Positions 17,701 through 49,597 of a stretch of DNA of 59,763 nt are shown one piece after another. Location: positions 1-59,763 of the forward strand of contig JAUUWG010000002.1 in assembly GCA_030589165.1 (NCBI GenBank), given 5' to 3'. The position numbers and the translations under genes were made by a program. The notes under the pieces were generated by a model. That model saw nothing but the letters and a program-made list of their open reading frames with translations, did not search any database and was not told where the DNA came from. The DNA is from Desulfobacterales bacterium (GTDB lineage: Bacteria > Desulfobacterota > Desulfobacteria > Desulfobacterales > JAFDHS01). The stretch's first letter is position 1. Every line of letters starts with the position of its first letter.

Positions 17701-17735
17701 GACGGTTATTTCTGCTGGCACGCTCAAAAATCCAT

Positions 17736-22926: not shown

Positions 22927-22934
22927 AGGTAATA

Positions 22935-22974
22935 GGTTAGGGGTTAGGGGTTAGGGGTTAGGGGTTAGGGGTTT
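22935..22974. repeat. Tandem heptamer array (GGTTAGG), about 5.5 copies
   Basis: Read directly from the sequence. It lies between the wzt start codon (22926) and the 3' end of the four-helix-bundle pseudogene. It is complementary to the array at 23328..23367. Confidence 0.9.
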
Positions 22975-23327
22975 ACGCCTTGCTTTGATAAGTGCACCGA
23001 TCATTTTGCCAAGCTGACTGCATTCTTTATCGAGATTTTCAAAAAGATCCTTTTCAATATAACCAATTTCAAATGCTATCTGGAGCTGGGTACGTAATTC
23101 GGCCAACGAATCTTTAGAAATATAAAAAACCTGACTGCATCTTTATTGGTATCACGTTCATCCCCTTCAGCCAAATTACTAGAGATACTTACAGCACACC
23201 TTCGTATTTGATCTCTAAGCCCAAAATCTTTACCCAAAAGCCCTTTATTAGACATCTTATAAATTCTCACCGCCAAATCTTTGGCCCTTTGCCAAACCAA
23301 CAATCCCTTAAATCCCTTCTTTTCCAT
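22951..23327 (-). pseudogene. Four-helix-bundle protein gene (23S rRNA intervening-sequence protein / Avd-like family), interrupted by a -1 frameshift in a homopolymer
   Basis: N-part MEKKGFKGLLVWQRAKDLAVRIYKMS...QIRRCAVSISSNLAEGDERDTNKDAVRFF. C-part in another frame: YISKDSLAELRTQLQIAFEIGYIEKDLFENLDKECSQLGKMIGALIKARRKPLTPNP-stop. Adding one T to the T6 run (plus-strand A6 at 23124..23129) restores a 125-aa ORF. Confidence 0.8.
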
Positions 23328-23367
23328 TACCCCTAACCTCTCACCCCTAACCTCTCACCCCTAACCT
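23328..23367. repeat. Tandem 14-nt array (TCACCCCTAACCTC), about 3 copies, inverse complement of the GGTTAGGGG array
   Basis: Read directly from the sequence. It is followed by hairpin AGGGGC-GAA-GCCCCT (23369..23383), which overlaps the wzm stop codon. Confidence 0.9.
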
Positions 23368-23381
23368 GAGGGGCGAAGCCC

Positions 23382-29173: not shown

Positions 29174-31579
29174 ATGAATGTAATGGAGAAGAAAATCGAC
29201 TGTCTCATCATCCTTGGAATGCATAGAAGCGGAACCTCTACGCTGGCTGGATGCTTAAACCTGCTCGGCCTGGATCTTGGTGAAAATCTCATGCCTCCCG
29301 GTCAGGGCAATGGAGACGGACATTTTGTAAACAATGACCTGATCCTGGTCCATGACATCCTGTTGCGGGACCTCGGCTGCAAATGGGACATGGTCGGCAA
29401 CCTGCCCCGGGATTGGCAGGAATCCGAGGCTGCGGACAGGGCCGGAAAAAGCATCAAATCGATCCTGGAACGTAATTTTCCCTCTAATAAAATCTGGGCA
29501 GTCAAGGATCCCCGCATGTGCAGGTTCATGCCTCTGTGGCTTCCTCTCCTGAAGGAGATGGGAATCAATCCGGGCCTTATTTTGAACCTGCGCCATCCCC
29601 TGGAAACGGCCCGATCCCTCGCCCAAAAGGATGAATTCGACCTGCGAAAAGGTTTTCTCCTCTGGCTCTCTCATTACAGAGAAGCCTTCAGTGCCTGCCG
29701 GGACAATTCAAACGTGGTCATCACCTATGACCAGCTCTTGGCCGATCCTGTATCCACGCTCAAATTCATCAGCGAATCCCTTGATGTCGATTATCCCAGG
29801 TCTCTGCGAAAAACCTACCCGGAAATTCTGGATTTTATCCGCCCCGAAATGAAACACCAACACAGTGGCCCCTCCCAAAACAAGGAAGAATCCGGGTTTG
29901 CCCATTTTATTCATTTTTATGAGCAGATTCGCCGGTTCTGTGTGGAAAGAACAACGCAGCTCACTGCCGAAGCCGGTAAAAAGCCCGGGAGTTTTCAATA
30001 CGATACGAAATTGTTGCCATCAGTACTGCAACATTTCTCTTACAAGGATTCTGTTTCAGGTGTCCGAAATTCAAAGCAGGAAATGACCGTACTCGCCTCA
30101 GGCCGTTTATTCAACGATATTCTGTCCCTTATCGGCGATCATGAACGGGTTCAGCACAGCCTGCATTTGGAAAAAGAGCGCAGGCTTATGAACAGTACAA
30201 AGCCTGGAACCACTCTTTTCGCTCAGGTGTATTTCCCACAAGAGCAGGGTGCCGTCTTTATTGAGGAAAAGTCCAAAAAAATTCTGCTGGCCCCGGTCGA
30301 ATGGCAGGAGATCACAGTATCGGTACCTGATCCGATTCTTGTCAAAGACAAAGGTTTGCGCCTGAACCCGTTGAATACCAGAGGGATTGTACATATTTCC
30401 AGCATCAGGCTGGTGAATTCAGCCACCGGGGAAACGGTCTTCAAGATTGAAAAACCCGAAGAATTTGAGAAGTGCCGGATCAAGGAGGATGGCTTCTCCC
30501 TGCCCGGACAGGATGGTTTGGCCCTTTTTGTATTCAGTCATGACCCGCGGATCATTCTTCCTTCAATCCCTGACTTACCGGACTGCCCTCTGGAACTGCG
30601 GGTCTGGATCAAGGCCCAGACAAATCAGGAGGAGATCAAAAATCTCTGGATGCAGGAACAAACGGCCAAAGAAGCGCTGGAATCAGTAAAGCAGCAGATG
30701 GAAACCGACCTCGCCGAGGTCAAAACTCAATTGACTGCAGCGCGTGCAGAAACACAGCAAGGGCAGGAGCGGATTAACCAGTTGAATCTGGAAAATTCCA
30801 GGCTTTCCAGCAGTAATCATCTTTACGCCGAAAAAAACAAGCAGCTCAAACGCTGGATGGACCAACTCCAAAACGATTTCAACGCGCTCATGGACTCTAA
30901 ACGATGGCGGACAGGCAATGCGCTTATCCGATTCATTGAGATAGTTCTTTTAAAAGGCCGAAAGCCAGGCGCTGCTCACCACATGCAACAGACATTTGCA
31001 TCTTTTAACTCCATGCCGGATAAGAAACAGACTGAATCCCAGTTTCACCAATCATGGAATTTTGATCAAAAAGTTACTCTTGACCGCCTGATGCGGCAAC
31101 TGAAAAACGATGTATCAGCCTTGTCCAAATCAGCCCGATGGAAGACGGGAAACGCCGCGATACGAATTGTTGAAATCATGCTTCTGCGAGGCAGACCCCG
31201 CCTGGCCCTGAACCATATGCAGGAGATATTCAGCGAGTTTCACACAAAGAAAGATCATGGCCAAAATATTTCGCCCTGGTTAATGCAGGAATGGATGCGT
31301 CAGCTTGAATCCGACTGCCAAGATATTCTGGCATCAAGGCGTTGGCAGGTGGGCAACAGCCTGGTCCGAGGATTGGAAATGCTTTTGCTGCGAAAAAAGA
31401 GGCCCCTGGCCACTGATCACATGCAGAAATTGTTCATTCAATTCAGTCAAGGGGAATACTCATATCATAGCAATGATACGTATGAACAGACTGCTAATAT
31501 ATATCCTTCTCAATTCAACACGTATGTCTCTGTTGAGCAAGCGGCAGGCGAGCCTTATACGCTTCGGTCACCGCTTTAG
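29174..31579 (+). CDS. Sulfotransferase-domain fusion protein: N-terminal sulfotransferase, beta-rich middle domain, coiled coil, three C-terminal RW repeats
   Basis: PAPS P-loop-like ILGMHRSGTSTLAGCL. The middle domain is homologous to that of ORF 40567. The three repeat modules centre on SKRWRTGNALIRFIEIVLLKGRKP, SARWKTGNAAIRIVEIMLLRGRPR and SRRWQVGNSLVRGLEMLLLRKKRP. Confidence 0.75.
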   Translation: MNVMEKKIDCLIILGMHRSGTSTLAGCLNLLGLDLGENLMPPGQGNGDGHFVNNDLILVHDILLRDLGCKWDMVGNLPRDWQESEAADRAGKSIKSILERNFPSNKIWAVKDPRMCRFMPLWLPLLKEMGINPGLILNLRHPLETARSLAQKDEFDLRKGFLLWLSHYREAFSACRDNSNVVITYDQLLADPVSTLKFISESLDVDYPRSLRKTYPEILDFIRPEMKHQHSGPSQNKEESGFAHFIHFYEQIRRFCVERTTQLTAEAGKKPGSFQYDTKLLPSVLQHFSYKDSVSGVRNSKQEMTVLASGRLFNDILSLIGDHERVQHSLHLEKERRLMNSTKPGTTLFAQVYFPQEQGAVFIEEKSKKILLAPVEWQEITVSVPDPILVKDKGLRLNPLNTRGIVHISSIRLVNSATGETVFKIEKPEEFEKCRIKEDGFSLPGQDGLALFVFSHDPRIILPSIPDLPDCPLELRVWIKAQTNQEEIKNLWMQEQTAKEALESVKQQMETDLAEVKTQLTAARAETQQGQERINQLNLENSRLSSSNHLYAEKNKQLKRWMDQLQNDFNALMDSKRWRTGNALIRFIEIVLLKGRKPGAAHHMQQTFASFNSMPDKKQTESQFHQSWNFDQKVTLDRLMRQLKNDVSALSKSARWKTGNAAIRIVEIMLLRGRPRLALNHMQEIFSEFHTKKDHGQNISPWLMQEWMRQLESDCQDILASRRWQVGNSLVRGLEMLLLRKKRPLATDHMQKLFIQFSQGEYSYHSNDTYEQTANIYPSQFNTYVSVEQAAGEPYTLRSPL

Positions 31580-31666: not shown

Positions 31667-34600
31667 ATGAATAAAAACCATGACATTCAGCTTTTAAAGA
31701 CATCGGACCTGTCCGGATTCCATTATTCCAATCCGGAAGGCATTGCCGTTGTCATGCCTTGCATTGATACCGAAAAGGGCATGACAACGGCCCGGAATCT
31801 TTCTCGGCGGGCTGGCATGCCTTGTAAGGTCCTGATCGTTCATGACAGCCGACACCAAGGGTTCATCAAAACATTGAATGACGCTGCCCTGAAAATATCC
31901 GCTCGCCATATCGTCTATTTGGCTGAAGATGCCTATCCGGGACGCAATTGGCTTGTCTGCGCCTATCACACTTTGGAGAAAAGCGGTAAGGGGTTGCTGG
32001 CTTTTAACGACGGCAAATGGAAGGGACGCATTGCCTCTTTCGGTATGGTCAGAACCAAGTGGGTCAAGTCATTGTATGATGGCAAGCTTTTTTATCCGGG
32101 ATACGAATCCCATGGGGCAGACAACGAACTGACTGTCATTGCCCGGGTCCGGAATATGCATGCGTATAACCCGGACTGTACGCTTGTGGAGTATGACCCG
32201 GTCAAAGACTTTGGCGGTTCCAACCCAAGAGATAGAGAGCTCTTTCAAACTCGCTTTGTAAACGGCTTTGATGGAATGGTGCCCTTGAAAAAGCTTAAAA
32301 AACTGGCAAAAGAGTATAATGTAAAAATGCACCTGAAAAATCATGAAAATTTGACAAAGGGGTACAATGTGATTTGTGAGCCACAAAAAAACAGAATCGG
32401 CATCTCCATTATCATTCATGCACGTAGTGGCGCAACCCCGCTGGATCGCCTGCTCTCTGCTTTTTACCAAGTCAACACCTATCAACCAGTTGAATTCATT
32501 GTCATTGATAATACCCTCAACGATCAGACACGAAAGGTTGTTGCCAAATATGCAGCAAATGATTCTATTCGTCATCTAAAACGTAACGAAAATGAATCCT
32601 TTGCAATTTCCAATAATTTGGCTGTCAAAAAGGCAAACTATCCTTATCTGCTTTTTTTGAGCACGGATATCATCTACACCAGCGATGTGCTGCCCCTGGC
32701 AGTTGCCCAGTTGCAGGATGCGAACATCGGCGTAGTGGGCATTCGGCTGGACGATTCCCCCCCGAGCCTGCCGCCCGGCAATCTCCCCGGCGTACGGCAC
32801 ACGGGCATCAAGTTCGTCCATGATCCGGCCCATGAATTCTACAGGCCTCTTCAGTTGAGTCTGAAAACCATTGAGGAAGCAAAAAAAGTTCCCAGCAGCA
32901 TTTATCCGGCCGTGGCCGGAGCCTTCCTGCTCTGCCGCAAGGGGGAGTTTGAAAAGCTGGACGGATTTTGCGAGGAGTACGACTACGGGTTCGAGGATAT
33001 TGATTTCTGCCTGCGGATAGGCTCGAAGCTGAAGAAGAAGTGTTTGTGCATCAATGAGGTCAGCCTGGGGTATGTTGGCGGAAACACACGGCATATGGAG
33101 CCTGGTGTTGCGGGGACAATTCAGGTCAAAAACTTACAACTGCTGAACAAGAGAGCAGGAGGCCAAATCAGCAAGTTTCCGACCCAAAAAACCGGATCAC
33201 AAAAATCATTCCACATATCCCAAGAACATGCGCCATTCATAAAACAAACATCAACCGTTTTCAGCAAATCATCGCCAAATATTGGCCAACGAATTTTATA
33301 CATTATTCATGATGGTGGTGGTGGTATGGTTTATACATCGTTTGATTTGATGAAATCGATGAATCAACGTAATACATCTTTTTTATTAAAAACAGGCAAA
33401 AAAGAATGGAAGCTTTATGAGTACATTAACAATGAAATAGCTTGTAAACATAAGTATGATTTCAAAATAGACTGGAAGGAAATTGTTGATATTAATAATG
33501 AACGAAAAGCTGCTTTAGATGATATCTATAATAAACTCAACCCTACTCTGATACATTTGAGAGTCCTTATCGGCAACGGACCTTATCTCATTGATTTTTT
33601 TAAAAATAAAAAACTGCCTGTTGTGCTCTCATTTCATGACTTTTCCGCGATATGCCCGAATATACAACTAATCAATAATGGCAAGTTCTGCTATGGAGAT
33701 TGTGAACTGCATCACCATCAAAATGATTGCCATTATTCAAAAAGCTGGTTTGGAAATAGAAGACGACTGCGTGGAGTTTTTCGCTACAATTGGGCTGAGA
33801 GGGTTGCTGAGTCTCTTTCTAAATGTGACGCTTATATCGTAACATCAAATTATACTAAGGAAATTATTTTAAAAAATTATCCGATGTTGGATCCTGAGAA
33901 ATTTCACAATATTGAACATGGTAGAGATTTTGAAAAAAAATATTCATTTTTTAAGGAATATAAGAATGGAAATTGCTGCGATATAATTTTCTTTGGCGCG
34001 CTAAATGAGGCGAAAGGATGTTCACTTGTGTCTGACATCATCAGGATAAATGAGGACAACGACGGGCCACTGAAATTTCATATCATCGGTGGGATCACGA
34101 ATAAGTATAAAAAACGATTTTCCGCGTACAAAAATGTTATTTTATACGGTAAGTATGAACGAGATGATTTAAGAAATTACTTTGAAGAGATTAAACCAAC
34201 CCTTACTATTTTACCATCAATATGTCATGAAACATATTCTCACGCGCTCACGGAGTCATGGGCTTATGGTGTTCCTGTTTTAGGGTCTTCGCTTGGAGCA
34301 ATTGGCGAAAGAATACGCGTTCATGATGGAGGATGGACGTTGGATCCAGTTCATAAACAACAATGGTATAATAAAATATTAAAAATAATCAAGGACAAAA
34401 AGGATTATTTACAAAAACTTAGTAATATTAAACAAATTGATATAAAAAGTCTGGATCATATGGCAGATGAGTATTGTATGGTTTATCGTAACTTGTTGAA
34501 GCCTCAGCAAAAGATTTCATCTGCAGCGAAAATTCAATCGTTCTTAAAAAAAGTAAAATTTAAATCACCAGAAAAGAAAGAGAAAAATAATCAGAAACGG

Positions 34601-37600
34601 AAAAATGAACGTCATGTCAAACTCCTGAGGCTTAAGCTGCTGAACCTTGGTATAACCGAGCGTGCTTTCGCGGACTTGAAAAAGCTGGCAGCGGACGATT
34701 CGGAACCTTACACGCAAAGGCTGGCCGCCTGGGAGTTGGCTTTATGGCACGCCAACAAGTGTAATAGAGAAGACGCCCGTCAATGTTTAGATCTGTTGCC
34801 CATAGCCACTCAAGATGAAAACGATCCGGAGCGTTTGCGCCGGGTTGCCATCCTTAAAGCTGAATGTCATGATATTCTGGGTGACTTAGAGGCTGGAAAA
34901 AAAGTAATCCAACATGCCCTATTTTCAGGCGACGATGCAGATCTTTACTTTGCCGCCGCGAACTTGGAGCCATCGATTTCGGGACGAATAGATTATATCA
35001 ATAAAGCACTTGAGCTATACGGCATTTCAAAAATCACATTTGACCCTATCGCCGGCCGACCACCCTATGACTGCCTGCGCCCAGGGCCTGGAACAAGAAA
35101 GCGGCCACAAATAACCAAGGATTCTTCCAAAGTTACCGTGATAGTACCAGCATATAACGCTGAAAAGACTATACAGACTGCCCTTGATTCCATTCTTGCT
35201 CAAACTTGGACCAACTTGGAAGTATTGGTGGTTGACGATTGCAGCACGGATGGCACCGTGGAAGTGGTCAAAGAGTATGAAATGAAAGATTCCAGGGTTA
35301 GACTGATCAAGGCTGAAACCAACCAGGGGCCTTATGTGGCGCGCAACTTGGCGCTCAAAGCGGCAACAGGAGATTTCGTAACCTGTAATGATGCTGACGA
35401 CTGGTCCCATCCCGAAAAAATTGAAATACAAGCAAAACATCTAATCCAAAATTCAAATTTTTTGGCCAACGTTTCACGATGGGCACGGGTTACCAATGAT
35501 CTGAAATTCTATCGGCGGGGCAATCCTGGTTTTTATATACAATTAAATATATCTTCATTAATGTTTCGTCGTGGGCCTCTGATGAAGGCTTTAGGCTACT
35601 GGGACAGCGTAAGATTCGGTGCTGACACTGAACTGTTCAATCGAATAAAAAAGGTGTTCGGGAAAGATGCGATTGAAGAGAATACGCTTGGACTCCTCTC
35701 TTTCGCAAGATATACTGAGTATTCTCTTACAGAGAATAAGAAATTTGGTTATCCGGGCTTCCCCATGGGTGCGAGAAGTGAATATCGTGAGAGTTATTTG
35801 CACTATCATGGTTTGGCAAACAAACTGCACTACGAATTTCCTATGAAATCTCGACCTTTTCCCGCACCCGGAGTCATGCGTCCGGTCAGAGAGACTAATT
35901 CTTTCTCAAATCGGCATTTTGAAGTAGTCTTCGTATCTGATTTTCGACATCCTGGCAATGCCATCTCTATTGCTGAGGGAATCAAGGCACAAAAAAGAAA
36001 GGGCGTTCGAACCGGCCTTGTCCAGATAGCGCGCTATGACTTGGCCTTAAGAAATTATAATATTGATAAGGAGATACGTGAGTTAATTGATGGTGATCAT
36101 GTTCAACTGCTTGTTTACGGAGAAGAGATCACTTGTGACATGTTGATAATCAGAGATCCTTCCATCCTTCAGGAAAAACAGCGCTATATTCCAGAAGTGA
36201 AAACAGGAAATGTTAGCGTTGTCGTAGAACAAGCGCCTGAGAAAGATTCTGGTTCTGGAGGCCTTGTCTATGACATCAGGCGATGCGCAAAGCATCTTTA
36301 TGAATACTTTGGCAAAAGCGGTGTTTGGCATCCCACTGACGCTCAGGTCCGACATGCGCTTTATAAACTCCACGGCGATGACTTGAAGGCAATAACCCTG
36401 GCAAATGAAGATTGGTCTAATAATACAGATGTAAAAGAATTCCAAAAGACCTCGCGCCCTCAAAGTGGATATAAGATCACTAACCAAAATTTTGATATGG
36501 TGAATGATAATGAAGTTATAAAACTTATGGACGTAAAAGATCTCTGGTCATTTGCATATACGGATACTGAAGGTGTAGCGGTAATCATGCCCTGCATTGA
36601 TACAAAAAAGGGCATGGATACAGCTAGTATCCTTTCCAAAAGGGCTGGAATTGATTGCAAAATATTGATAATTCATGACACCTTATGTCAAGGGTTTATC
36701 AAAACCCTGAACGATACGGCAGCGAGGGTCTCTACCAGATATATTGTATATCTTGCAGAAGATGCCTTTCCGTCGATAGACTGGCTGCGTTGCGCCTATG
36801 ACATCTTGGGAAAAAGCGGTAAAGGACTGCTGGCATTCAATGATGGTAAATGGAGGGGACGTATTGCGGCATTTGGTATGGTCAGGATCGAGTGGGTCAA
36901 AACTTTGTATGGGGGCTTGATATTTTATCCGGAGTATAATGCTCACAAGGCGGATAATGAACTGACGGTCATTGCCCGAGCCCAAGGAATGCATGTGTAT
37001 AATCCGGAATGTACGCTTATAGAGTATGATCCGAATAAGGTGTTTAAAGAAAATATTCCAAAAGATAAAGAGATTTTCAGAAAACGATTTCAACAGGGCT
37101 TTGACGGGCTTGTACCTTTGGAGAAACTCGCGCCAATGGCGAAAGAATATTTTGTCCCATGGAATGTTGAAAAGCCAATGTCAGCACAAAAAAAAACAAA
37201 TTTTAAACAGAAAAATTTTAGCAAAATTGAATCATATTCTCAAGGCGCTAAATCAAATAAATTTACTTTTTTTAAAAAAAAATCTAAGTCAAAAGCTTTA
37301 CGTAATGTTTCGGATACCTTTGCTCTGTATCGTATTATCGGCAATGATTTGCACCCGAGACACAAAAAAAGACAATCACGTGAGAACCTGCGGTTTATAT
37401 TAGAAAATGAGCCTGATTTCGAAAATTGTGAAAAGAGATTCATCATCAATCGCATTATTGATCAGAATGAAGAACAGGCTATCATTAAATTGCTCAAAGA
37501 CCATAAACGTGAATATATACAGATCCGGTTTAATCCCGATGAATATCGCAAAATCGGATTTGACACCGACTGCTTTCCGGAGCCGGGGTACCTTTCCAGT

Positions 37601-40408
37601 AAAAAATTCGAAGCTTTTGACAATATCAAAAAAGATAGAGCTACCGCTGCAATTTACCGTTTGAAAAATAACTATGTTATGAACAACAACGGCGCTCGGA
37701 ACGCCGCGCTGCGTGATGGAAGGAGACGGGCAAAGTGGGTCCTCCCCTGGGACGGCAACTGTTTTATTACAACAAAAGCGTGGGAGCGAATCCATACCGA
37801 TGTCACTGCCTCGCCCCACCTGAAATATTTTGTCGTGCCCATGGCTCGCGTCCTTGATAATACGCAATTGTTATCAAAGGGATTTGCCCCTGCGCCGGTT
37901 GAGGAGCCGCAGATTATCTTTCGCAACGATGCCAAGGAAGAGTTCAACAAAGCTTTTTGTTATGGACGTAGACCCAAGGTGGAGCTTTTCTGGAGGCTCG
38001 GCGTCCCTGGCAAATGGGATCACTGGCCGGAAGACGATCCGTGGGATCAAAAGCGTTTACCGGAATCCATTGAAGCCCGCCAATTCGGGGTGGCAGGCTG
38101 GGTGGCCAGGTTGTTTTCCGGTATGAAGGATTTGGAACTTGAGAACAAGCAAAGTATTACAAAAAGAGTTTTAGCACGAAATGAAGCGATCATTACAACA
38201 CTGAATCATGTGGATACAATGGTTGCAGGCATGTCCAATGATAAGCCCACCAGTTTTCGGTCCGATATTCTGGAAGCAGAGTGCTTGAAATACCAAGCAG
38301 GAGATGACCCGGCGCTTGCCAATGTTGTTGAAAGGCTGATCTTGGATGCCGAAGATGCGCTAACGCACGGGCCCTATTCAGTCACGGACAAAACAACGTT
38401 GCCACCAAGCGGCAACGCAAACGACTACTGGCATCCTGCCCCTTACTGGTGGCCCAACCCGGATACGCAAGACGGTTTGCCTTATATTCGAAAAGACGGG
38501 GAGCGGGCGCCCGGCACCAGTATGTATGAGGCGGAAAGTGATAAGTATGATCGCACGCGTTTGCAGCGTGTGTTCGATGATTCCTTCATTCTGGCGCTGG
38601 CATGGAAGTTTTCAGGTGAAAAGAAGTATGCTGAGCATGGCGCACGAATTCTGGAACGTTTTTTCGTGGATCCAATTACGCGAATGACGCCTCACTTAAA
38701 ATACGGCCAAGTCAGAATGGGACACAATAAGAATATTGGTTCCAGCACCGGGATCATCGAGATGAAGGATATGTATTATTATCTCGATGCCGTGCGCATG
38801 ATGACCGCGGCCGGTGTTGTTTCAAGTGACGATCTCGGTAGTTTTAAAGATTGGCTGAAAACATATTTGGACTGGCTGTTGTATTCCCCCCAGGGAAGAG
38901 TCGAATGCGGATCGGCCAACAATCATGGCGCCTGCTATGATCTTCAAGTATCTTCCATTGCCTCTTTTTTGAATGATAAATCAGTCCTGTTTGAAACCTT
39001 GGCTCGCGCTCAGTCCAGAATCTCTCAGCAATTTGCACCTGACGGCTCACAGCCCGATGAATTAAAACGGAAAACGACAGCGCATTATTGCCTTTTTAAT
39101 TTTCAAAGCTGGTTAAACCTGGCAGAAATAGCCTCTCGGTATAATACGGATTTCTGGTCCTATGAAGCACCAAATGGTGCAAGCTTGATTAAGGGTGCGC
39201 AATGGCTTCTGGGTCATATGGGGAAAAAGTGGCCCTATCAGCAGATAGATGATTTTGACGCAGAACGCTTTTACCCCATATGGTTTGCTGTTTCTGCCGT
39301 CTCAATTAATCCACTGGGAGTCACCAATTTACCAGACTCAAAATACAAGGTAAAACCGAGATTTTTCCCACATGACGGGATTCGACCGTTTTGGAATTTG
39401 GGAGCCCAGTGCCACTCTTGTCACCACGATTCGGGTAGTAGCAGCCAACAGGTCAGTAACACCACAAAAACCAGCGTCAGATCTCAGAAGGCAGTTGCCA
39501 AAATGGATATAAATATGGTTGAATCACAACAAGTTTTCATTAACATAGACGATGCAATGAAATACGCTGAAGAAGCTATGAAGCAAAAAGACTGGTCTGA
39601 GGCGGAGAAATGCTGGCAAGAAATTTTGAATGTTTTTAGCACTACAGCAAAACCGCGTGTTACAGAGATTGCAGATGCTATGTCTGCAAAAGCTGAATGG
39701 CAAGACTATCGGTATTGCAATATCTGCGGTTGCCCGCTATTTGGCAAAATGGGATCAAGAAAAAATGTAAAATGTTTAAATTGTGGATCTTTAGAGCGAA
39801 CCAGGTTGCTATATTTACATTTACAAAATTTTGAATTAATTACTCCAGATATAAAAGTTTTTCATCTGGCGCCAGAGAAAGCGCTGTACCAAGCTATATC
39901 AAAAATTATTCCTCCGTCAAATTATTTCGTTACGGACTATGATCCAAGTAGATATAGTTTTGCGAAGGGGATACAAAAGTTTGATTTATGTAATGATGTT
40001 GAGGGATTGCCTGACAATTTTTTTGATCTTATTATTCACAGCCATGTTATGGAACATGTACCTTGTAATTATAGTTTTGTTCTTAAGCATTTACATCGGG
40101 CCCTTAAAGACAATGGAAGACATCTTTGCGTGATACCGTTCATGGCAGGCTACTATGATGAATGTTTTGCCCCTCTCAGTGTTGAGGAGGCAAAAACGCG
40201 GTTTGGTCAATTTGATCATGTCAGACGTATTGGCACTAATGATATTCATAATACTCTTGGTCGTGTCATTCCAATTGATCCTGATTACGATGCTACAAAA
40301 CTATTTTCACCAGAGATTCTTTTAAAAGCCAACATTCCAGAGAATTGCTGGAAAGGTTTGACAATTCATACAGTTCTTCTACTCAAAAAGGAAGATTACA
40401 AGCTCTAA
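31667..40408 (+). CDS. Giant multi-module glycan-biosynthesis protein (2,913 aa)
   Basis: Uninterrupted ORF. Approximate modules:
- A1, unknown GT-A-like: 31690-32320
- GT2: 32393-33100
- GT-B/GT4: 33285-34500 (HETYSHALTESWAYGVPVL)
- TPR-like: 34650-35040
- GT2: 35129-35800 (VIVPAYNAEKTI..VVDDCSTDGT)
- unknown: 35909-36420
- A2, duplicate of A1: 36500-37150
- unknown B domain: 37315-38130
- alginate-lyase (PL5)-fold domain: 38250-39405 (NNHGACYD)
- Zn-ribbon + class I methyltransferase: 39706-40405. Confidence 0.85.
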   Translation: MNKNHDIQLLKTSDLSGFHYSNPEGIAVVMPCIDTEKGMTTARNLSRRAGMPCKVLIVHDSRHQGFIKTLNDAALKISARHIVYLAEDAYPGRNWLVCAYHTLEKSGKGLLAFNDGKWKGRIASFGMVRTKWVKSLYDGKLFYPGYESHGADNELTVIARVRNMHAYNPDCTLVEYDPVKDFGGSNPRDRELFQTRFVNGFDGMVPLKKLKKLAKEYNVKMHLKNHENLTKGYNVICEPQKNRIGISIIIHARSGATPLDRLLSAFYQVNTYQPVEFIVIDNTLNDQTRKVVAKYAANDSIRHLKRNENESFAISNNLAVKKANYPYLLFLSTDIIYTSDVLPLAVAQLQDANIGVVGIRLDDSPPSLPPGNLPGVRHTGIKFVHDPAHEFYRPLQLSLKTIEEAKKVPSSIYPAVAGAFLLCRKGEFEKLDGFCEEYDYGFEDIDFCLRIGSKLKKKCLCINEVSLGYVGGNTRHMEPGVAGTIQVKNLQLLNKRAGGQISKFPTQKTGSQKSFHISQEHAPFIKQTSTVFSKSSPNIGQRILYIIHDGGGGMVYTSFDLMKSMNQRNTSFLLKTGKKEWKLYEYINNEIACKHKYDFKIDWKEIVDINNERKAALDDIYNKLNPTLIHLRVLIGNGPYLIDFFKNKKLPVVLSFHDFSAICPNIQLINNGKFCYGDCELHHHQNDCHYSKSWFGNRRRLRGVFRYNWAERVAESLSKCDAYIVTSNYTKEIILKNYPMLDPEKFHNIEHGRDFEKKYSFFKEYKNGNCCDIIFFGALNEAKGCSLVSDIIRINEDNDGPLKFHIIGGITNKYKKRFSAYKNVILYGKYERDDLRNYFEEIKPTLTILPSICHETYSHALTESWAYGVPVLGSSLGAIGERIRVHDGGWTLDPVHKQQWYNKILKIIKDKKDYLQKLSNIKQIDIKSLDHMADEYCMVYRNLLKPQQKISSAAKIQSFLKKVKFKSPEKKEKNNQKRKNERHVKLLRLKLLNLGITERAFADLKKLAADDSEPYTQRLAAWELALWHANKCNREDARQCLDLLPIATQDENDPERLRRVAILKAECHDILGDLEAGKKVIQHALFSGDDADLYFAAANLEPSISGRIDYINKALELYGISKITFDPIAGRPPYDCLRPGPGTRKRPQITKDSSKVTVIVPAYNAEKTIQTALDSILAQTWTNLEVLVVDDCSTDGTVEVVKEYEMKDSRVRLIKAETNQGPYVARNLALKAATGDFVTCNDADDWSHPEKIEIQAKHLIQNSNFLANVSRWARVTNDLKFYRRGNPGFYIQLNISSLMFRRGPLMKALGYWDSVRFGADTELFNRIKKVFGKDAIEENTLGLLSFARYTEYSLTENKKFGYPGFPMGARSEYRESYLHYHGLANKLHYEFPMKSRPFPAPGVMRPVRETNSFSNRHFEVVFVSDFRHPGNAISIAEGIKAQKRKGVRTGLVQIARYDLALRNYNIDKEIRELIDGDHVQLLVYGEEITCDMLIIRDPSILQEKQRYIPEVKTGNVSVVVEQAPEKDSGSGGLVYDIRRCAKHLYEYFGKSGVWHPTDAQVRHALYKLHGDDLKAITLANEDWSNNTDVKEFQKTSRPQSGYKITNQNFDMVNDNEVIKLMDVKDLWSFAYTDTEGVAVIMPCIDTKKGMDTASILSKRAGIDCKILIIHDTLCQGFIKTLNDTAARVSTRYIVYLAEDAFPSIDWLRCAYDILGKSGKGLLAFNDGKWRGRIAAFGMVRIEWVKTLYGGLIFYPEYNAHKADNELTVIARAQGMHVYNPECTLIEYDPNKVFKENIPKDKEIFRKRFQQGFDGLVPLEKLAPMAKEYFVPWNVEKPMSAQKKTNFKQKNFSKIESYSQGAKSNKFTFFKKKSKSKALRNVSDTFALYRIIGNDLHPRHKKRQSRENLRFILENEPDFENCEKRFIINRIIDQNEEQAIIKLLKDHKREYIQIRFNPDEYRKIGFDTDCFPEPGYLSSKKFEAFDNIKKDRATAAIYRLKNNYVMNNNGARNAALRDGRRRAKWVLPWDGNCFITTKAWERIHTDVTASPHLKYFVVPMARVLDNTQLLSKGFAPAPVEEPQIIFRNDAKEEFNKAFCYGRRPKVELFWRLGVPGKWDHWPEDDPWDQKRLPESIEARQFGVAGWVARLFSGMKDLELENKQSITKRVLARNEAIITTLNHVDTMVAGMSNDKPTSFRSDILEAECLKYQAGDDPALANVVERLILDAEDALTHGPYSVTDKTTLPPSGNANDYWHPAPYWWPNPDTQDGLPYIRKDGERAPGTSMYEAESDKYDRTRLQRVFDDSFILALAWKFSGEKKYAEHGARILERFFVDPITRMTPHLKYGQVRMGHNKNIGSSTGIIEMKDMYYYLDAVRMMTAAGVVSSDDLGSFKDWLKTYLDWLLYSPQGRVECGSANNHGACYDLQVSSIASFLNDKSVLFETLARAQSRISQQFAPDGSQPDELKRKTTAHYCLFNFQSWLNLAEIASRYNTDFWSYEAPNGASLIKGAQWLLGHMGKKWPYQQIDDFDAERFYPIWFAVSAVSINPLGVTNLPDSKYKVKPRFFPHDGIRPFWNLGAQCHSCHHDSGSSSQQVSNTTKTSVRSQKAVAKMDINMVESQQVFINIDDAMKYAEEAMKQKDWSEAEKCWQEILNVFSTTAKPRVTEIADAMSAKAEWQDYRYCNICGCPLFGKMGSRKNVKCLNCGSLERTRLLYLHLQNFELITPDIKVFHLAPEKALYQAISKIIPPSNYFVTDYDPSRYSFAKGIQKFDLCNDVEGLPDNFFDLIIHSHVMEHVPCNYSFVLKHLHRALKDNGRHLCVIPFMAGYYDECFAPLSVEEAKTRFGQFDHVRRIGTNDIHNTLGRVIPIDPDYDATKLFSPEILLKANIPENCWKGLTIHTVLLLKKEDYKL

Positions 40409-40566: not shown

Positions 40567-43014
40567 ATGGCCAAACCTACCATTATATTAATAGGTGCGC
40601 CCAGAAGTGGCATATCCATACTCGGCGAATGCTTGAGCAAGCTTGGACTGCACGCTCTTGACGAACGGAGCCGGGCAGAAATTTCCACTATCAACCGTCT
40701 GCTTTTCCAAGACACAGACCATTCTCCAACCATGGTTGGCCCTTTGCCTCAGGGGTGGTTGAACTCGTATGGCGCGGACAAGGCCAGAGGGCGCATCCGG
40801 GGTCTGCTCGCCTCCCGACGGAATGCTGGTGGCCTCCTGTTTCTGGCTGACCCCTTGCTGTGCCGTATTCTGCCCCTATGGATGGAAGCCTTTCAGGATC
40901 AAGATCTGGAGCCACGCTTCATTCATATGGTTCGCCATCCTTATGAAGTCGCTCTTTCCTTGCAGGAAGACCAAGATATCGACCTTCTCAAAGGCCACCT
41001 AGTCTGGCTGGCATGGGTGCGGGATGCTCTAACCGGCTCTGCAAATCGTAAAAGTGTTCTGATCACTTTTGATCAGCTCATGGCAAACCCGATCACTACC
41101 CTGAATTCAGCCGGGAGATCCCTGGATATAAAATTTCCTATAGACCTGAGCACCTCATACCACGCCCTTCTAAATTTTGTTAAGCCAGGCTTGATGCACC
41201 ACCATGCAGGGATTGCTTCGGAGGCCGACAGGAAACGATTCACCCCGTTCAATCGCTTCTATGATGCCTTGCAGCTGCTCCAGGCCGGCGCCGGGGTTCA
41301 GGCAACAACACATTCCAGCCGCGGCATGATGGCCATTGGCGACCACGAGGCGGTTTCCGGCGGCGATGGTCTCCTGGACATGATGTTTCAGGTACTTGGG
41401 CATTATGAGCACAAAGAACATGGCCTGCGCACACGGGAAGAGCGGCTTTTGAGCGCCTCCCATGCGGGGCAGGCCTTGTTTGCCACGCTCTCTATCCCCA
41501 CAAGCGTCGGCGAATACAGGGCAAAGCGGATTCCTATTTTGCCTGACCAGTGGCAAAAGATCACCCTGGATATCCCCAGGCCAGACCTGCTCAACGACAC
41601 GCCTTTGCGCTTTTGTCCCCTGAATACCACGGGGGCGGCAACCATATCAGCCGTCAAACTCGTCAACCGGGCTACGGATGAGGTGCTCTGGTCCGCCCAG
41701 ACATCCGAGGACAACAACCTTGTGGCCGTGGAAGGAACAGCCTTGCGGGTTCCGGCAAAGGACAATCTCGCCTTACTCATCACCGGCAAGGAGCCTGTCG
41801 TTGTCCTTACAGGTCCTGCCCAAATGCCGGACTTTCCGGCACGAGTAGAGATATGGCTCAAGGTAAGCCAAAATCAGGGATTGCACCATGAGTCATTGCG
41901 GGCTTTTCTCAGCTTGGAGAGTTGGAAAACACTCCTGGGGACAACTCCCCAAGACTCGGATTCCGACAACTTGCTGCATTTGGCCACAGCGTTTGAAGAC
42001 GCAGGATGCTTGGCCGAAGCCGATGCAGTATTGCGCAAGGGTGTGGAAGATGAGCCAGGGGCAGTGACACTGAGAATGGCCTTTGCTGAACTCTCCATGA
42101 AGCGCAAAGACTGGCCCGAGGCTGTCAGGCGCTGGCAGGATGTGGCAGCACTTCAGGGAGAAAGCACCCCTGCCCAGGTCTACCAACGCCTGGATGAAGC
42201 TTATCAGAAGCAAAAGTCTTTTCCCAAGGGGAGCCCTGAAGAGGAAGTGCGCATTGGTGACGGTGACAAGCATGAAATGCTCTCCTTGATCCATCGCATC
42301 CTCGCACCTGAGATGTACCTGGAAATCGGTGTTCAGAGCGGGAAAAGCCTGGCTTTGGCGTCATGTGATGCAATTGGCGTTGATCCCATGCCCCAAGTAA
42401 GTGTTGTGTTGTCCGAGGGGGCCAAGGTAGTGGCCATGACCAGCGATGATTTCTTCCGCGGCCCTGCCGTTTCATTGGTGAAGAACCCACCGGATCTGGT
42501 GTTCATCGACGGCATGCACCTTTTCGAGCACACCCTGCGTGACTTCATGCATGTGGAACGAATGGCGGCTCCGTGGACCCTGGTGGTCATCGACGACATC
42601 TTTCCCGCACATCCGGCCCAGGCGGAGCGGCGGCGAAGAACGCGCGCCTGGACTGGCGACGTGTGGAAGATCTACGAGATCCTGAGCCGATACCGGCCCG
42701 ACCTGTTTCTCCTGCCTGTAAATACCTCGCCCACCGGTCTGCTCCTGATCGCCGGTTTCCAACCAGCCAACCAGGTTTTGTGGAACAACTACGACGCCAT
42801 TGTCAGCAAATATTCCGCCGGCAGGAAGCCACCGGAAGCGATATTGAAACGAGACGGTGTCCTATCCTCCAGGCACGACGCCATTCCACGCATTCTGGCG
42901 GCATTGAAAACGGGGCGGGAGGAACTGCTTGAATCAGTAACGATCATAAGTCATCTGGAGAAAGAACTCACAGATGCTTGTAATGGCTCTCGGCCGAGAT
43001 TCCCATTTATGTGA
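40567..43014 (+). CDS. Sulfotransferase - beta-rich domain - TPR - class I SAM methyltransferase fusion protein
   Basis: N-terminus IILIGAPRSGISILGECL. The middle domain (RIPILPDQWQKITLDIP...RFCPLNTTGAATISAVKLVNRATDEVLW) is paralogous to ORF 29174. The C-terminus EIGVQSGKSLALAS...VFIDGMHLFEHTLRDF...VVIDDIFP is a Methyltransf_24/CmcI-like pattern. Confidence 0.75.
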   Translation: MAKPTIILIGAPRSGISILGECLSKLGLHALDERSRAEISTINRLLFQDTDHSPTMVGPLPQGWLNSYGADKARGRIRGLLASRRNAGGLLFLADPLLCRILPLWMEAFQDQDLEPRFIHMVRHPYEVALSLQEDQDIDLLKGHLVWLAWVRDALTGSANRKSVLITFDQLMANPITTLNSAGRSLDIKFPIDLSTSYHALLNFVKPGLMHHHAGIASEADRKRFTPFNRFYDALQLLQAGAGVQATTHSSRGMMAIGDHEAVSGGDGLLDMMFQVLGHYEHKEHGLRTREERLLSASHAGQALFATLSIPTSVGEYRAKRIPILPDQWQKITLDIPRPDLLNDTPLRFCPLNTTGAATISAVKLVNRATDEVLWSAQTSEDNNLVAVEGTALRVPAKDNLALLITGKEPVVVLTGPAQMPDFPARVEIWLKVSQNQGLHHESLRAFLSLESWKTLLGTTPQDSDSDNLLHLATAFEDAGCLAEADAVLRKGVEDEPGAVTLRMAFAELSMKRKDWPEAVRRWQDVAALQGESTPAQVYQRLDEAYQKQKSFPKGSPEEEVRIGDGDKHEMLSLIHRILAPEMYLEIGVQSGKSLALASCDAIGVDPMPQVSVVLSEGAKVVAMTSDDFFRGPAVSLVKNPPDLVFIDGMHLFEHTLRDFMHVERMAAPWTLVVIDDIFPAHPAQAERRRRTRAWTGDVWKIYEILSRYRPDLFLLPVNTSPTGLLLIAGFQPANQVLWNNYDAIVSKYSAGRKPPEAILKRDGVLSSRHDAIPRILAALKTGREELLESVTIISHLEKELTDACNGSRPRFPFM

Positions 43015-43029
43015 TCATAGTGCAAAAGG

Positions 43030-44478
43030 ATGTTCGTTTCTTCTTCCTCAAACGGTTTGATAAGGCCAATAAATATGGATTCTATAAAATTTCATCGTCT
43101 ACTGTTTACTGTTGCGGTTTTTACCTTTGCAGTTTTGATTTTTTCGACAAGTCAGGCGCATTCACAGGCAAGCAACGTCATCCAGCCTAAAAATACAATC
43201 AACCTGGGTAATGGCTGGGCCACAAACACCATCAATACTGTGATCTTCCGTCATCATGGGGTGATCACCTCCAAAAACTTTCAATTTACCGCTTTTTACG
43301 ACTCTGAGGGTAACATAAAACTGGTCCAGAGAAATCTGGATAGCAACAAAATAATGACGCATCTTATTCCGGGTGAATACAACCTTTTTGATGCGCACAA
43401 TTCCATTAGCATTGGCATTGACCGCCTTGGCCATTTGCATATTAGCTACGATCATCATGGAAATGATCTTCGTTACCGCAGGTCCTTGGAACCTTTATCA
43501 ATCAATTTATGGACTGATATGGTTCAAATGACGGGACGGCGTGAGAGCCTGATAACGTACCCAGCTTTTATTTATGACGGAGCAGGGGAAGTGCAAAGGC
43601 CCATGCTTTTCCTGTATCGTTATGGAAGTTCTGGAAAGGGAGAAGCATGCATCAAGGAATATGATGAGCAGTCATCAGAGTGGAAAGACAGGGAACCGTG
43701 CATTCTGTCCGGATCGCAACAAAACCCCTGGACCAGCAACGCCTATTGGAACCACCCGATTATAGACCATACAGGCAGGATGCATTTATCTTTTGTCTGG
43801 AGGACAAACTCCATCGGTTCAGAGAAAAGAATCAATAACATAAATGTGGATTATGCCTATTCGGATGATCACGGTTGTACTTGGCATAGTTCTAAGGGCC
43901 GGGAACTGAAAACTCCTATTACGCAGGTGAATTCGGAGACGGTTTGGACCGTTTCCCCAGGATCGAATCTGATCAACCAAACCAGCATGGCTGTGGATAG
44001 CAAAGGCCGCCCGCACATTGTGTTTTACTCTGATGATCCAGACAAGATTCCCCAGTATGAACATCTGTGGTTTGATGGAAAGGTGTGGCGGCATCATTAC
44101 ATAAGCACGCGGGACAAGCCGTTTGTTCTTGCCGGCGGGGGAGCCCTTCAAATACCCATCAGCCGGCCGGAGATTGTTATTGATAAACAGGACCGGGTTT
44201 ACGTGATTTTCAGGGGTGATTTCACAAAAGACCGAATGGTTGTGCAAAGGTTGCTTTCCCCGGAATATAAACCAGATGCAAGTGAAACAAAGATACTCTG
44301 GCCGGCGCCTCTGGAGTTCGCGGAACCGGTCATTGACCGCATCCGCTGGGACAGGGACGGCATATTAACCATGCTTATTCAACGAAACGGCCAACCACCT
44401 CATGACAAAGGCGGAGTTCCAAGAAGCGAGCCTGTTTATTTGGTTGATTGGGATATAGTAGGTGGGTGGAATAATTGA
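43030..44478 (+). CDS. BNR_4-type beta-propeller protein with an N-terminal membrane anchor or signal
   Basis: TM/signal segment LLFTVAVFTFAVLIFSTSQA. HNSISIGIDRLGHLHISYDHHGNDLRYRRS and NAYWNHPIIDHTGRMHLSFVWR are typical of the BNR_4 family. Confidence 0.65.
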   Translation: MFVSSSSNGLIRPINMDSIKFHRLLFTVAVFTFAVLIFSTSQAHSQASNVIQPKNTINLGNGWATNTINTVIFRHHGVITSKNFQFTAFYDSEGNIKLVQRNLDSNKIMTHLIPGEYNLFDAHNSISIGIDRLGHLHISYDHHGNDLRYRRSLEPLSINLWTDMVQMTGRRESLITYPAFIYDGAGEVQRPMLFLYRYGSSGKGEACIKEYDEQSSEWKDREPCILSGSQQNPWTSNAYWNHPIIDHTGRMHLSFVWRTNSIGSEKRINNINVDYAYSDDHGCTWHSSKGRELKTPITQVNSETVWTVSPGSNLINQTSMAVDSKGRPHIVFYSDDPDKIPQYEHLWFDGKVWRHHYISTRDKPFVLAGGGALQIPISRPEIVIDKQDRVYVIFRGDFTKDRMVVQRLLSPEYKPDASETKILWPAPLEFAEPVIDRIRWDRDGILTMLIQRNGQPPHDKGGVPRSEPVYLVDWDIVGGWNN

Positions 44479-47955: not shown

Positions 47956-48741
47956 ATGTTAAGACTTAGCAAAGATATCTGGGAAAACCGTCACGCCTTG
48001 CGCAGTCAATTTTATGTAAACACCAAAACCACGGTGGCAACCACCAAATTGGGAATGCTCTGGTGGATTTTAGATCCTTTGTTTCTCATGCTGATTTATT
48101 ATTTTGTGGTAAAAGTCATTTTTAACCGCGGCGGGCCCAATTACCATCTATTTCTTCTCTGCGGCCTTGTAACGTATCAGTTTTTTTCCCGTTCGATTGC
48201 TTTATGCACGGGAGCCCTTGTTCGCAGCGAAGGCCTGATCAAGCAGGCATCCCTGCCCATGGTAATTTATGTAATCATTTCCCCCCTGGTGCAGGCCTTC
48301 TTTTGCATAATCGGCTTCATCGTCATCATGATCTGGAATTATCATGCGTTGGGATTGCACACCTTGAGTATTGTAGTTCCAGTGTTCTTGACGATTATGA
48401 TATCGTTTACCGCGGGGTTGTTTTTGTCAATATTTGAAGTCTATATCAGAGACACCGGTAAATTGATCTCCTATGTGTTGCGTTTCGGTATGTATCTAAG
48501 CCCTGTTTTATACGCTTCGGACAGAATTTATGACAATCCGTCCATTCCTGAATACGCCAAGGCCCTTTATTCGTTGAACCCCATGGTTCATGTCATAACC
48601 GCTGTTAAAGACCTTCTTTTTCATGGGAGGATGTTCGATCCCGTTCCCCTGCTGATTGTCTTTGCAGCTGTTTTTGCTATCATGCAGTTCGGATTGTTCT
48701 TTTTCCGCAGGTCATCACCCTATGTTCCCAAAATGCTGTAA
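47956..48741 (+). CDS. ABC-2 type polysaccharide exporter permease (second copy)
   Basis: 261 aa with 6 TM segments. The N-terminal RSQFYVNTKTTVATTKLGMLWWILDPL pattern is Wzm/KpsM-like. Confidence 0.85.
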   Translation: MLRLSKDIWENRHALRSQFYVNTKTTVATTKLGMLWWILDPLFLMLIYYFVVKVIFNRGGPNYHLFLLCGLVTYQFFSRSIALCTGALVRSEGLIKQASLPMVIYVIISPLVQAFFCIIGFIVIMIWNYHALGLHTLSIVVPVFLTIMISFTAGLFLSIFEVYIRDTGKLISYVLRFGMYLSPVLYASDRIYDNPSIPEYAKALYSLNPMVHVITAVKDLLFHGRMFDPVPLLIVFAAVFAIMQFGLFFFRRSSPYVPKML

Positions 48742-48769
48742 AACCATTGCGCAGGTTTGATTTTGACTT

Positions 48770-49597
48770 ATGACTGAATTTTCAAATGACACGTGTCAAC
48801 CATTATCGAAAAACCTTTCACCCATAGTCGTCTTTGATAATGTAAGTTTATGCTTTCGCAAGCATTCATCCATTTTTGAGCTGTTTTTTAAAAACAAAAA
48901 CAGAGATAAGAATTTCTGGGCACTGCGGGGTGTTTCTTTCTGCATCCATGAGGGTGAAACCCTGGGTATTATCGGTCGCAACGGATCAGGAAAGAGCACA
49001 TTATCCCTGGTCTGTACAAAAGTATACCAGCCGGACAAAGGAGAGATAGAGATTAACGGCCGGGTACAGCTTCTGGCCCTGGGAGTAGGGTTTCAAAAAC
49101 AGCTTTCCGGCCGGGAAAACGTTTACATCAGCGGCAGCCTGCTGGGCCTTAAAACATCTGAAATAAGAGAGCGAATGGATGAAATAGAAGCGTTTGCCGA
49201 TATCGGAGAGTTCATGGATGAGCAGGTGCGCACGTATTCCAGCGGGATGAGAAGCCGCCTGGCATTTGCCATTGCCACTGCCATCCGCCCGGACATCCTT
49301 ATCCTGGACGAGGTAATGGCAACGGGTGACAACGCTTTTCGGGATAAGGCAATGGATAGAATGAAAAACCTGCACTCACTGACCAAGTGCGCCATTGTCA
49401 TTTCACACAGTCCTGCCCAGCTTAAACAACTCTGCAATAAAGTAATCTGGCTGGAAAAAGGAAGAATGGTGATGCAGGGGGAACCGACTCCGGTTTTGGA
49501 TGCATATCAGGCATTTTGCAAGAATCCCAAAGAATGGATGGAAAAACATCCGGAATATTTACATGATTCGAATATTACAACATCAAATCAATCTTAA
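48770..49597 (+). CDS. Polysaccharide ABC exporter ATP-binding protein (short form, no Wzt_C tail)
   Basis: Walker A GRNGSGKSTL, signature YSSGMRSRLAF, Walker B ILILDEVM. Confidence 0.85.
   Translation: MTEFSNDTCQPLSKNLSPIVVFDNVSLCFRKHSSIFELFFKNKNRDKNFWALRGVSFCIHEGETLGIIGRNGSGKSTLSLVCTKVYQPDKGEIEINGRVQLLALGVGFQKQLSGRENVYISGSLLGLKTSEIRERMDEIEAFADIGEFMDEQVRTYSSGMRSRLAFAIATAIRPDILILDEVMATGDNAFRDKAMDRMKNLHSLTKCAIVISHSPAQLKQLCNKVIWLEKGRMVMQGEPTPVLDAYQAFCKNPKEWMEKHPEYLHDSNITTSNQS

Follow-up and report, generated by a model that had tools for sequence, protein, structure and literature searches.

A sulfotransferase-like module fused to a TPR-methyltransferase in an ABC-transporter polysaccharide operon of a Desulfobacterales bacterium: a possible chain-capping protein

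WbdD, the chain terminator of Escherichia coli O9a and Klebsiella pneumoniae O3, combines a kinase and a methyltransferase with a coiled-coil ruler. To our knowledge, the caps known from bacterial ATP-binding cassette (ABC) transporter pathways are methyl, methylphosphate and 3-deoxy-D-manno-octulosonic acid (Kdo), and all of them are coupled to a carbohydrate-binding module (CBM) of the transporter. Here, we describe an open reading frame at positions 40567 to 43014 (+ strand), referred to below as the target, in a 59,763-nucleotide stretch of Desulfobacterales DNA from a marine sediment metagenome (assembly GCA_030589165.1, contig JAUUWG010000002.1, positions 1 to 59,763); this whole stretch is called the window. 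The target joins a sulfotransferase-like N-terminal module to a tetratricopeptide repeat (TPR)-methyltransferase tail. The target lies in a surface-polysaccharide operon of a marine sulfate reducer; its probable role is to decorate or cap the sugar chain of this operon, and the modification possibly involves sulfate.

In all characterised termination systems, a coiled-coil ruler carries the terminating enzyme at its distal end, and a CBM on the transporter ATPase Wzt is present in every characterised terminated system (Kelly et al. 2024, PMC11231755). The order of parts in the terminator ORF6-O7 is methyltransferase, kinase, an extra CBM, coiled coil and glycosyltransferase (GT) modules, some of its orthologs stop after the coiled coil, and another terminator, ORF7-O4, has a TPR-like bundle (PMC11231755).

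The target consists of four parts, i.e., a sulfotransferase-like P-loop domain, a beta-sandwich, two to three TPRs and a Methyltransf_24 domain. No hydrophobic stretch of membrane-spanning length was found in the whole 815-residue sequence, and an NCBIfam scan gave no specific match for the target or for its paralogue in the window, ORF 29174. The features are as follows, with PAPS standing for 3'-phosphoadenosine 5'-phosphosulfate, SAM for S-adenosylmethionine, AF2 for AlphaFold2 and pLDDT for its predicted local distance difference test score.

40567..43014, + strand: the whole target, 815 aa, ATG start, predicted soluble, no transmembrane segment predicted
40567..41211, + strand: PAPS-sulfotransferase-like P-loop domain, aa 1-215 (AF2 model and Foldseek; Sulfotransfer_3 sub-threshold)
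40594..40617, + strand: 5'-phosphosulfate-binding-type loop GAPRSGIS, aa 10-17 (family consensus; no Walker-A lysine)
40933..40959, + strand: 3'-phosphate-binding-type motif RHPYEVALS, aa 123-131 (conservation in 174 sequences)
41212..41466, + strand: helical linker, aa 216-300, poorly modelled (pLDDT 31-67)
41479..41868, + strand: predicted beta-sandwich (jelly-roll, lectin-like), aa 305-434 (model pLDDT 89)
41944..42231, + strand: TPR region of about two to three repeats, aa 460-555 (family profile against the PDB)
42289..42771, + strand: class I SAM methyltransferase (Methyltransf_24, CmcI/TylF-like), aa ~575-735 (Pfam and motifs)
42772..43011, + strand: C-terminal tail, aa 736-815, kept in full-length orthologs

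The first 445 residues were modelled with AF2 (pLDDT 76) and the model was searched against the PDB with Foldseek. The best matches were sulfotransferases, namely TPST1/2, the OLS and CurM sulfotransferase domains, SULTs, Stf9 and Teg12 (E 2e-6 to 1e-4, probability 1.0), with P-loop kinases slightly lower, and the model thus predicts a sulfotransferase fold for the N-terminal domain. The PAPS-sulfotransferase signature, which comprises the 5'-phosphosulfate-binding (5'-PSB) loop x-[RK]-S-G-[TS]-[TS] and an Arg...Ser pair of the 3'-phosphate-binding (3'-PB) type without a Walker-A lysine, is present in the target. Across 174 family members the loop consensus was G-x-[HP]-[RK]-S-G-x-S, again without the Walker-A lysine; Arg or Lys occupied its fourth position in 133 of the 174 aligned sequences (~83% of those with a residue there), and S14 and G15 were conserved in 86% and 91%. 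Conservation was higher still in the 3'-PB-type motif (R123 98%, P125 99%, E127 96%, S131 90%), in which R123 and S131 are spaced like the Arg/Ser pair that binds the 3'-phosphate in PAPS sulfotransferases. D95 (87%), R100 (84%) and W147 (99%), as well as W105 and D169, were also conserved, and the target retains every conserved PAPS-binding-type residue of the family, including D95, R100, W105, E127, W147 and D169. A kinase identity for this domain was rejected, because the Walker-A lysine is missing, the domain has the Arg...Ser 3'-phosphate motif, and Foldseek ranks sulfotransferases above kinases. Among the relatives, Sulfotransfer_3 was the sole recurrent Pfam family, with 8 of 14 matching at E<0.1 (best 6.5e-5). 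The domain therefore resembles the Sulfotransfer_3, TPST and CurM/OLS sulfotransferases in fold, 5'-PSB-type loop and R...S 3'-PB-type motif, whereas it differs from them in that its scores are below the Pfam threshold and in that a helical linker and a beta-sandwich always follow it. Fold, motifs and relatives together support a PAPS-sulfotransferase-like assignment, although by hidden Markov model this is the least secure of the domain labels.

In the AF2 model the linker fell below a pLDDT of 50 at aa 241-270 and in two short segments. When modelled alone, the middle domain formed a nine-strand beta-sandwich (pLDDT 89) with a predicted lectin-like shape; its PDB matches in Foldseek were weak ones to lectins of the ConA type, CBM3/CBM3a and CBM4 (E 5.6e-3 to 0.1, TM<0.4).

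An earlier note, written from the sequence of the window, had described the protein as TPR repeats and a CmcI/Methyltransf_24-like methyltransferase joined to N-terminal and beta-rich domains shared with ORF 29174, and these three assignments were borne out. The TPR signal was weak in the single sequence by Pfam, and single-sequence PDB searches with the whole target or with the tail alone returned TPR matches only; a 14-sequence family profile matched designed consensus TPR proteins in the PDB at profile positions ~460-565 (E 7e-32 to 2e-18). Methyltransf_24 matched aa 585-678 over its full profile (1-105 of 105; E 4e-9, 37.7 bits against a gathering cutoff of 26.3). The methyltransferase motifs LEIGVQSG (glycine-rich SAM motif), GVDP (acidic), FIDGMH and VIDD are kept among the 14 orthologs, in which E586 is invariant and G588, G592 and D606 occur in at least 90%. 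One ortholog, in a Thermodesulfobacteriota metagenome-assembled genome (MAG; locus L007 of those described below), also matches RMNT_CmcI (rhamnosyl O-methyltransferase/CmcI) and TylF. A search with the tail (aa 446-815) returned 1,623 proteins at E<1e-5, stand-alone homologues with 45-64% identity to it and a length of 450-550 aa. Their annotation reads 'TPR repeat protein' or 'class I SAM-dependent methyltransferase', and their sources include cultured Vreelandella, Halomonas, Rheinheimera and Desulfonatronovibrio. They share the TPR-then-methyltransferase order of the target and a location in glycan loci, but have no 445-residue N-terminal module and are themselves uncharacterised. Three contexts of the stand-alone gene were examined: rmlB, rmlD, rmlA and rmlC precede it in two (Vreelandella and Rheinheimera), a large GT2-GT4 gene lies downstream in all three, and one locus also holds a Sulfotransfer_1-hexapeptide protein. 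Because these homologues follow rml genes and the operon of the target contains a homologue of a GH145-like rhamnosidase, we reasonably infer a rhamnose-type acceptor for the target's methyltransferase.

The paralogue lies upstream of the target on the same strand.

29174..31579, + strand: ORF 29174, 801 aa, with the same 445-aa module, a short coiled coil and three repeats

By BLASTP, target aa 5-467 aligned to ORF 29174 with 28% identity over 510 aa (E 2e-74), and the alignment runs from the N-terminal domain through the linker and the beta-rich domain. A crude heptad scan placed the coiled coil of ORF 29174 at ~aa 473-537. ORF 29174 is likely a ruler or scaffold partner of the target. After its coiled coil, at aa ~545-780 (30590-31579, + strand), three tandem ~55-aa repeats with the pattern W..QL..D...L..S.RW.TGN..IR..E..LL[KR]G[RK] matched no known family; they may form an amphipathic membrane-binding or partner-binding region.

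We searched exhaustively with a profile of the module, defined as the N-terminal 445 aa, and counted matches as representatives of 50%-identity clusters. This search gave 16,135 matches at E<1e-3 and 2,093 at E<1e-30, whereas a word-indexed homologue search had recovered no more than 17-34 of the module's relatives. Almost all of the top 150 matches begin with the complete module, and the tail behind it varies. When 129 tails were clustered, 64 were coiled-coil-like as in ORF 29174, 16 were of the TPR-Methyltransf_24 type of the target, 14 were FkbM methyltransferases and 7 belonged to one further type, the rest forming smaller groups; the only scanned member of the 7-tail type (P0022) gave no Pfam match in its tail. 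Pfam scans of examples showed a coiled coil followed by GT4 in three representatives (P0030, P0026 and P0075), and the other scanned tails comprised GT2, GT8, WbsX with RgpF, Methyltransf_23/11, TPR with a TRM5-like methyltransferase, and canonical Sulfotransfer_1/3 domains. The post-module consensus of 97 representatives was a coiled coil that matched SMC, dynactin and myosin in the PDB; the profile of these representatives gave mostly coiled-coil matches, with the sulfotransferase 4gox appearing only at E 0.059. Look-ups of cluster names returned 'FkbM family methyltransferase' and 'hypothetical protein' only. The module thus defines a large uncharacterised family, and its family-level pattern is new to us.

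The target belongs to a run of same-strand genes (26609-53636, + strand) in the order two GT4 genes, ORF 29174, a 2913-aa GT, the target, a BNR_4 protein, GT2 and a 757-aa protein with an alginate-lyase-like domain, after which come Wzm, Wzt, a TPR protein, GT4 and GT2. No convincing promoter or terminator signal was found on the + strand between the target and its neighbours. Two further features of this operon are needed below.

47956..49597, + strand: Wzm (261 aa, starting at 47956) and Wzt (275 aa, 48770-49597), the latter with no carbohydrate-binding module
31667..40408, + strand: 2913-aa multi-domain glycosyltransferase with GT2, GT4, GT2, alginate-lyase-like and C-terminal Methyltransf_11 domains

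The locus is ABC-transporter dependent, and the 2913-aa glycosyltransferase is presumed to be its polymerase. The G+C content of the target is 55-57%, against 41-45% in the flanking segments, which fits cassette exchange, and 1-kb windows across 26000-54000 range from 36% to 57%, a mosaic that suggests that the operon was put together from cassettes of differing origin.

Relatives of the target come almost entirely from Desulfobacterales MAGs, and 25 of their loci (numbered here with an L) were fetched. The close loci are glycan loci with many glycosyltransferase genes, and Wzm/Wzt genes lie within 10 kb in L002, L004, L007, L008, L015, L019 and L026. Synteny is closest with a Desulfobacteraceae MAG (L004 and L021), whose identity to the window is 78% for GT4b, 72% for ORF 29174, 74% for the giant GT, 89% for GT2, 86% for Wzm and 82% for Wzt. 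The L004 gene at the position of the target has the same module (42% identity), but its tail is a canonical Sulfotransfer_1 domain (E 2.5e-22) where the target has TPR-Methyltransf_24. In L003 and L005, a true ortholog of the target lies directly downstream of the ORF 29174 ortholog (52% and 47% identity over almost the entire length). A coiled-coil copy and an enzyme-tailed copy of the module repeatedly accompany each other in Desulfobacterales Wzm/Wzt glycan loci, sharing one contig in six cases (the window, L003, L005, L004/L021, L006/L019 and L002); L014 and L015 have a coiled-coil copy and a second, incomplete module gene with a tail that is not typeable. The tail swap at one locus position, together with the G+C mosaic, fits a variable, epitope-defining function.

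The arrangement found in P0030, P0026 and P0075, which Kelly et al. 2024 (PMC11231755) regard as characteristic of terminator-ruler proteins, is that of ORF6-O7 (K. pneumoniae O7) and WbbB (O12), i.e., a catalytic head, a beta-sandwich or CBM and a coiled coil, with or without glycosyltransferases. The head of the module differs in being sulfotransferase-like rather than a methyltransferase-kinase or a Kdo transferase, and the target differs further in having TPRs and a methyltransferase instead of a coiled coil and glycosyltransferases, and in having no CBM-bearing Wzt. Since the layout of module, coiled coil and glycosyltransferase mirrors WbbB and ORF6-O7, it offers real comparative support that, by analogy, favours capping by a sulfotransferase-like head, chiefly for ORF 29174; the evidence for termination comes from the wider module family and not from the target protein. 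WbdD resembles the target in other respects: both have two transferase activities (predicted ones in the target), one of them a SAM methyltransferase coupled to a phosphoryl- or sulfuryl-transfer domain, and both are cytoplasmic and encoded in a Wzm/Wzt operon. However, the domain order of the target is reversed, a sulfotransferase-like domain replaces the protein-kinase-like fold, neither coiled coil nor membrane helix is present, and the partner Wzt has no cap-reading CBM. A methyl-sulfate diester cap analogous to the methylphosphate of WbdD was rejected as chemically implausible. A methylated sulfate is chemically unlikely, and a methyl and a sulfate are more plausibly placed on separate hydroxyls.

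For catalytic activity, substrate, terminal or internal position and effect on chain length, we propose the following for the target. It would be a cytoplasmic fusion of two glycan-modifying enzymes that acts on the lipid-linked polysaccharide of the Wzm/Wzt operon. The C-terminal half would O-methylate a sugar, probably a rhamnose-type residue, by means of SAM, while the TPRs would dock this methyltransferase to the polymerase complex; in the N-terminal half, the lectin-like beta-sandwich and the sulfotransferase-like domain would bind the chain and most likely transfer sulfate to it. The target most likely acts jointly with ORF 29174, which would supply the ruler or scaffold and to which the target would dock through its module, its TPRs or both. 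It would then place a second mark, which is exchangeable, on the non-reducing end, so that the tail would define the terminal epitope and the methyl and sulfate cap would stop elongation. We tentatively prefer this two-protein capping set, in which ORF 29174 contributes the ruler or scaffold with its own sulfotransferase head and the target adds a terminal O-methyl and possibly a second sulfate, and we put its chance a little short of even.

Several observations weigh against this proposal. Sulfotransfer_3 scored 13.3-15.4 bits for the target and 24.1 bits for the paralogue, both below the gathering cutoff of 27, so that Pfam gives partial support to the N-terminal sulfotransferase label of the earlier note, with fold, motifs and relatives in its favour. 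No PAPS-synthesis genes were seen within the window, the isolated beta-sandwich had no significant structural match in Foldseek and no Pfam match, and it is not obvious why those members of the family that are fused to canonical sulfotransferases would need two. Unlike ORF 29174, the target gave no coiled coil in the crude heptad scan, and no WbdD chain was matched in the PDB at E<=1, either with the single sequence or with the 14-sequence profile. The earlier note had also proposed co-occurrence with Wzt_C-bearing ATPases as a check, and this check failed: the operon Wzt has ABC_tran only and no Wzt_C domain, and the Wzts beside module genes in six other loci are equally CBM-less, being 232-270 aa long in L002, L004, L015, L019 and L026 and fused to a methyltransferase in L007. 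What survives of its chain-terminator idea is the ABC-transporter locus and the layout of the family; a coiled coil, homology to WbdD and a CBM on Wzt were not found. As a separate observation, the L007 Wzt (L007:7473-9059), which is 76% identical to the Wzt of the window, carries its C-terminal Methyltransf_23 fusion at the position that the carbohydrate-binding module occupies in terminated systems.

The main alternative is that the target decorates the chain internally, placing sulfate and/or O-methyl once per repeat unit of a sulfated, methylated acidic polysaccharide and having no role in termination or chain length, which we regard as a serious possibility, if a somewhat doubtful one. 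The CBM-less Wzts here and in related loci are like those of non-terminated ABC systems, and the target has no coiled coil of its own. Several extra stand-alone sulfotransferases are encoded in the related loci L002, L028 and L029, as expected for heavily sulfated polymers, and a polymer like ulvan or rhamnan sulfate would fit the lyase-like and rhamnosidase-like genes of the operon. Sulfated ABC-transporter capsules with ordinary sulfotransferases are also on record, e.g., in Cobetia marina, in which the sulfotransferases of the locus are predicted to sulfate the capsule (PMC11766843). However, internal decoration leaves unexplained why the module is often positioned distally on a coiled coil, in some cases opposite polymerase glycosyltransferases, and why coiled-coil and enzyme copies keep occurring in pairs. 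Even if internal decoration were all that it does, the module with its fusions would be a useful, as yet unannotated marker for glycan-modification loci.

The constancy of the module beside diverse tails, some of them canonical sulfotransferases, would also be accounted for if the module transferred no sulfate and served as a nucleotide- or glycan-binding dock that recruits exchangeable catalytic tails, perhaps by module-module pairing with the coiled-coil paralogue, leaving the methyltransferase as the only catalytic part. Consistent with this, the P-loop Arg/Lys, kept in 133 of 174 sequences, is replaced in some members (PCSG in P0005 and PASG in P0016), and the Sulfotransfer_3 score is sub-threshold. 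Nevertheless, conservation is very strong at the PAPS-binding residues and at a candidate catalytic base (R123, S131, D95, R100 and W147, all present in the target), which is unusual for a pseudo-enzyme and argues against a non-catalytic scaffold; we consider it improbable. A lipid, protein or small-molecule substrate with an incidental operon location, for which one might cite the tyrosylprotein, polyketide and glycopeptide sulfotransferases among the best structural matches, is very improbable indeed, given that all relatives examined lie among glycosyltransferases, many adjoining Wzm/Wzt or rml genes, and that the module is directly fused to GT2, GT4, GT8 and WbsX/RgpF domains.

Returning to the two-protein capping set, we considered a broader form of it, in which the module represents a large class of sulfate-capping terminators that work as pairs, with the beta-sandwich reading the chain end instead of a Wzt CBM. 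Each set would comprise a coiled-coil ruler copy and an exchangeable copy that adds a second mark, a methyl in the window and a second sulfate in the nearest relative. A built-in beta-sandwich that took over the job of the Wzt CBM would explain the CBM-less neighbouring Wzts. We judge this general form unlikely. If true, the sulfate cap would be new chemistry, drawn from a family of thousands with ruler-plus-accessory pairs and CBM-less transporters, and termination would be coupled to export in a new way. The finding would further help to understand how abundant marine sediment sulfate reducers make sulfated or methylated surface polymers, which are relevant to carbon and sulfur cycling.

Neither a bacterial sulfate terminator nor this module was described in the literature searched, which did not cover the 2019 terminator census of Mann, Kimber and Whitfield (Glycobiology 29:822), reported to predict new terminator chemistries. 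The earlier note's remark that a sulfate-based terminator is not a described mechanism thus appears true for bacteria within that literature, and the priority of the idea is uncertain. A eukaryotic precedent may exist: to go by the title of a 2020 Glycobiology paper by Sheikh et al., HNK-1 sulfotransferase reportedly 3-O-sulfates glucuronic acid on matriglycan. The sulfation is reported to halt matriglycan extension. HNK-1 sulfotransferase would be a possible precedent for terminal sulfation that stops the extension of a polymer, but it is a eukaryotic Golgi enzyme, and its unrelated pathway involves neither a ruler nor an ABC transporter. In Aeromonas salmonicida, an ORF with a sulfotransferase domain adjoins WbbB and was left unexplained by the authors (PMC4483657).

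Other observations concern the neighbouring genes. The alginate-lyase-like domain of the 2913-aa ORF matches PF05426 (E 2e-72), and the protein contains an internal duplication of an unannotated ~234-aa domain (aa 1-234 against 1611-1844, 60% identity, E 8e-111); in relatives, its domains are distributed over several genes. A ~370-aa domain occurs twice in the window (37262-38270 and 45511-46620, both + strand), each time fused to an alginate-lyase-like domain, and in relatives it is a separate gene directly upstream of wzm (L004:13594-14799 and L007:5439-6641). It has the invariant motifs YRIxGNDLxPRH, NNYVMNNxARN and LPWDGNCF, gave no match in Pfam, NCBIfam or the PDB, and could be a new glycan-processing or transferase domain. 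The copy in ORF 45511 was considered as a WbbB-like Kdo-transferase terminator and rejected, since none of these three databases supported it.

The BNR_4 protein that follows the target (43030-44478, + strand) shows homology to BT3686, a GH145 alpha-L-rhamnosidase, with an NCBIfam match (NF052497, E 4e-101) that does not reach the equivalog cutoff. The protein has a signal-peptide-like N-terminus despite its location in a biosynthetic operon, and it also adjoins the target ortholog in L003 (72% identity). Directly downstream of the operon are a CAP/SCP-domain protein (54256-55158, + strand) and an 887-aa ORF without a family match (55579-58242, + strand).

A second Wzm/Wzt pair (21685-24266, - strand) belongs to a divergent, separate glycan cluster. 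Its Wzt (413 aa) has a weak Wzt_C-like C-terminus (E 0.002, sub-threshold); among the transporters of the window, it alone may bear a CBM. The genes of the minus-strand glycan cluster at 12225-18677 (- strand) encode a B12-binding radical SAM protein, Methyltransf_23, a UbiA-family prenyltransferase, GNAT, a PIG-L deacetylase and GT2, a set that is unusual for a polysaccharide locus. The window also contains a fragment of an IS200-like Y1 transposase and a gene for a Uma2-family endonuclease, with coordinates listed as 1029-1946 and 20095-20715 (both - strand), and a TnpB/IS605 OrfB gene (25036-26211, - strand) lies exactly between the two divergent glycan clusters.

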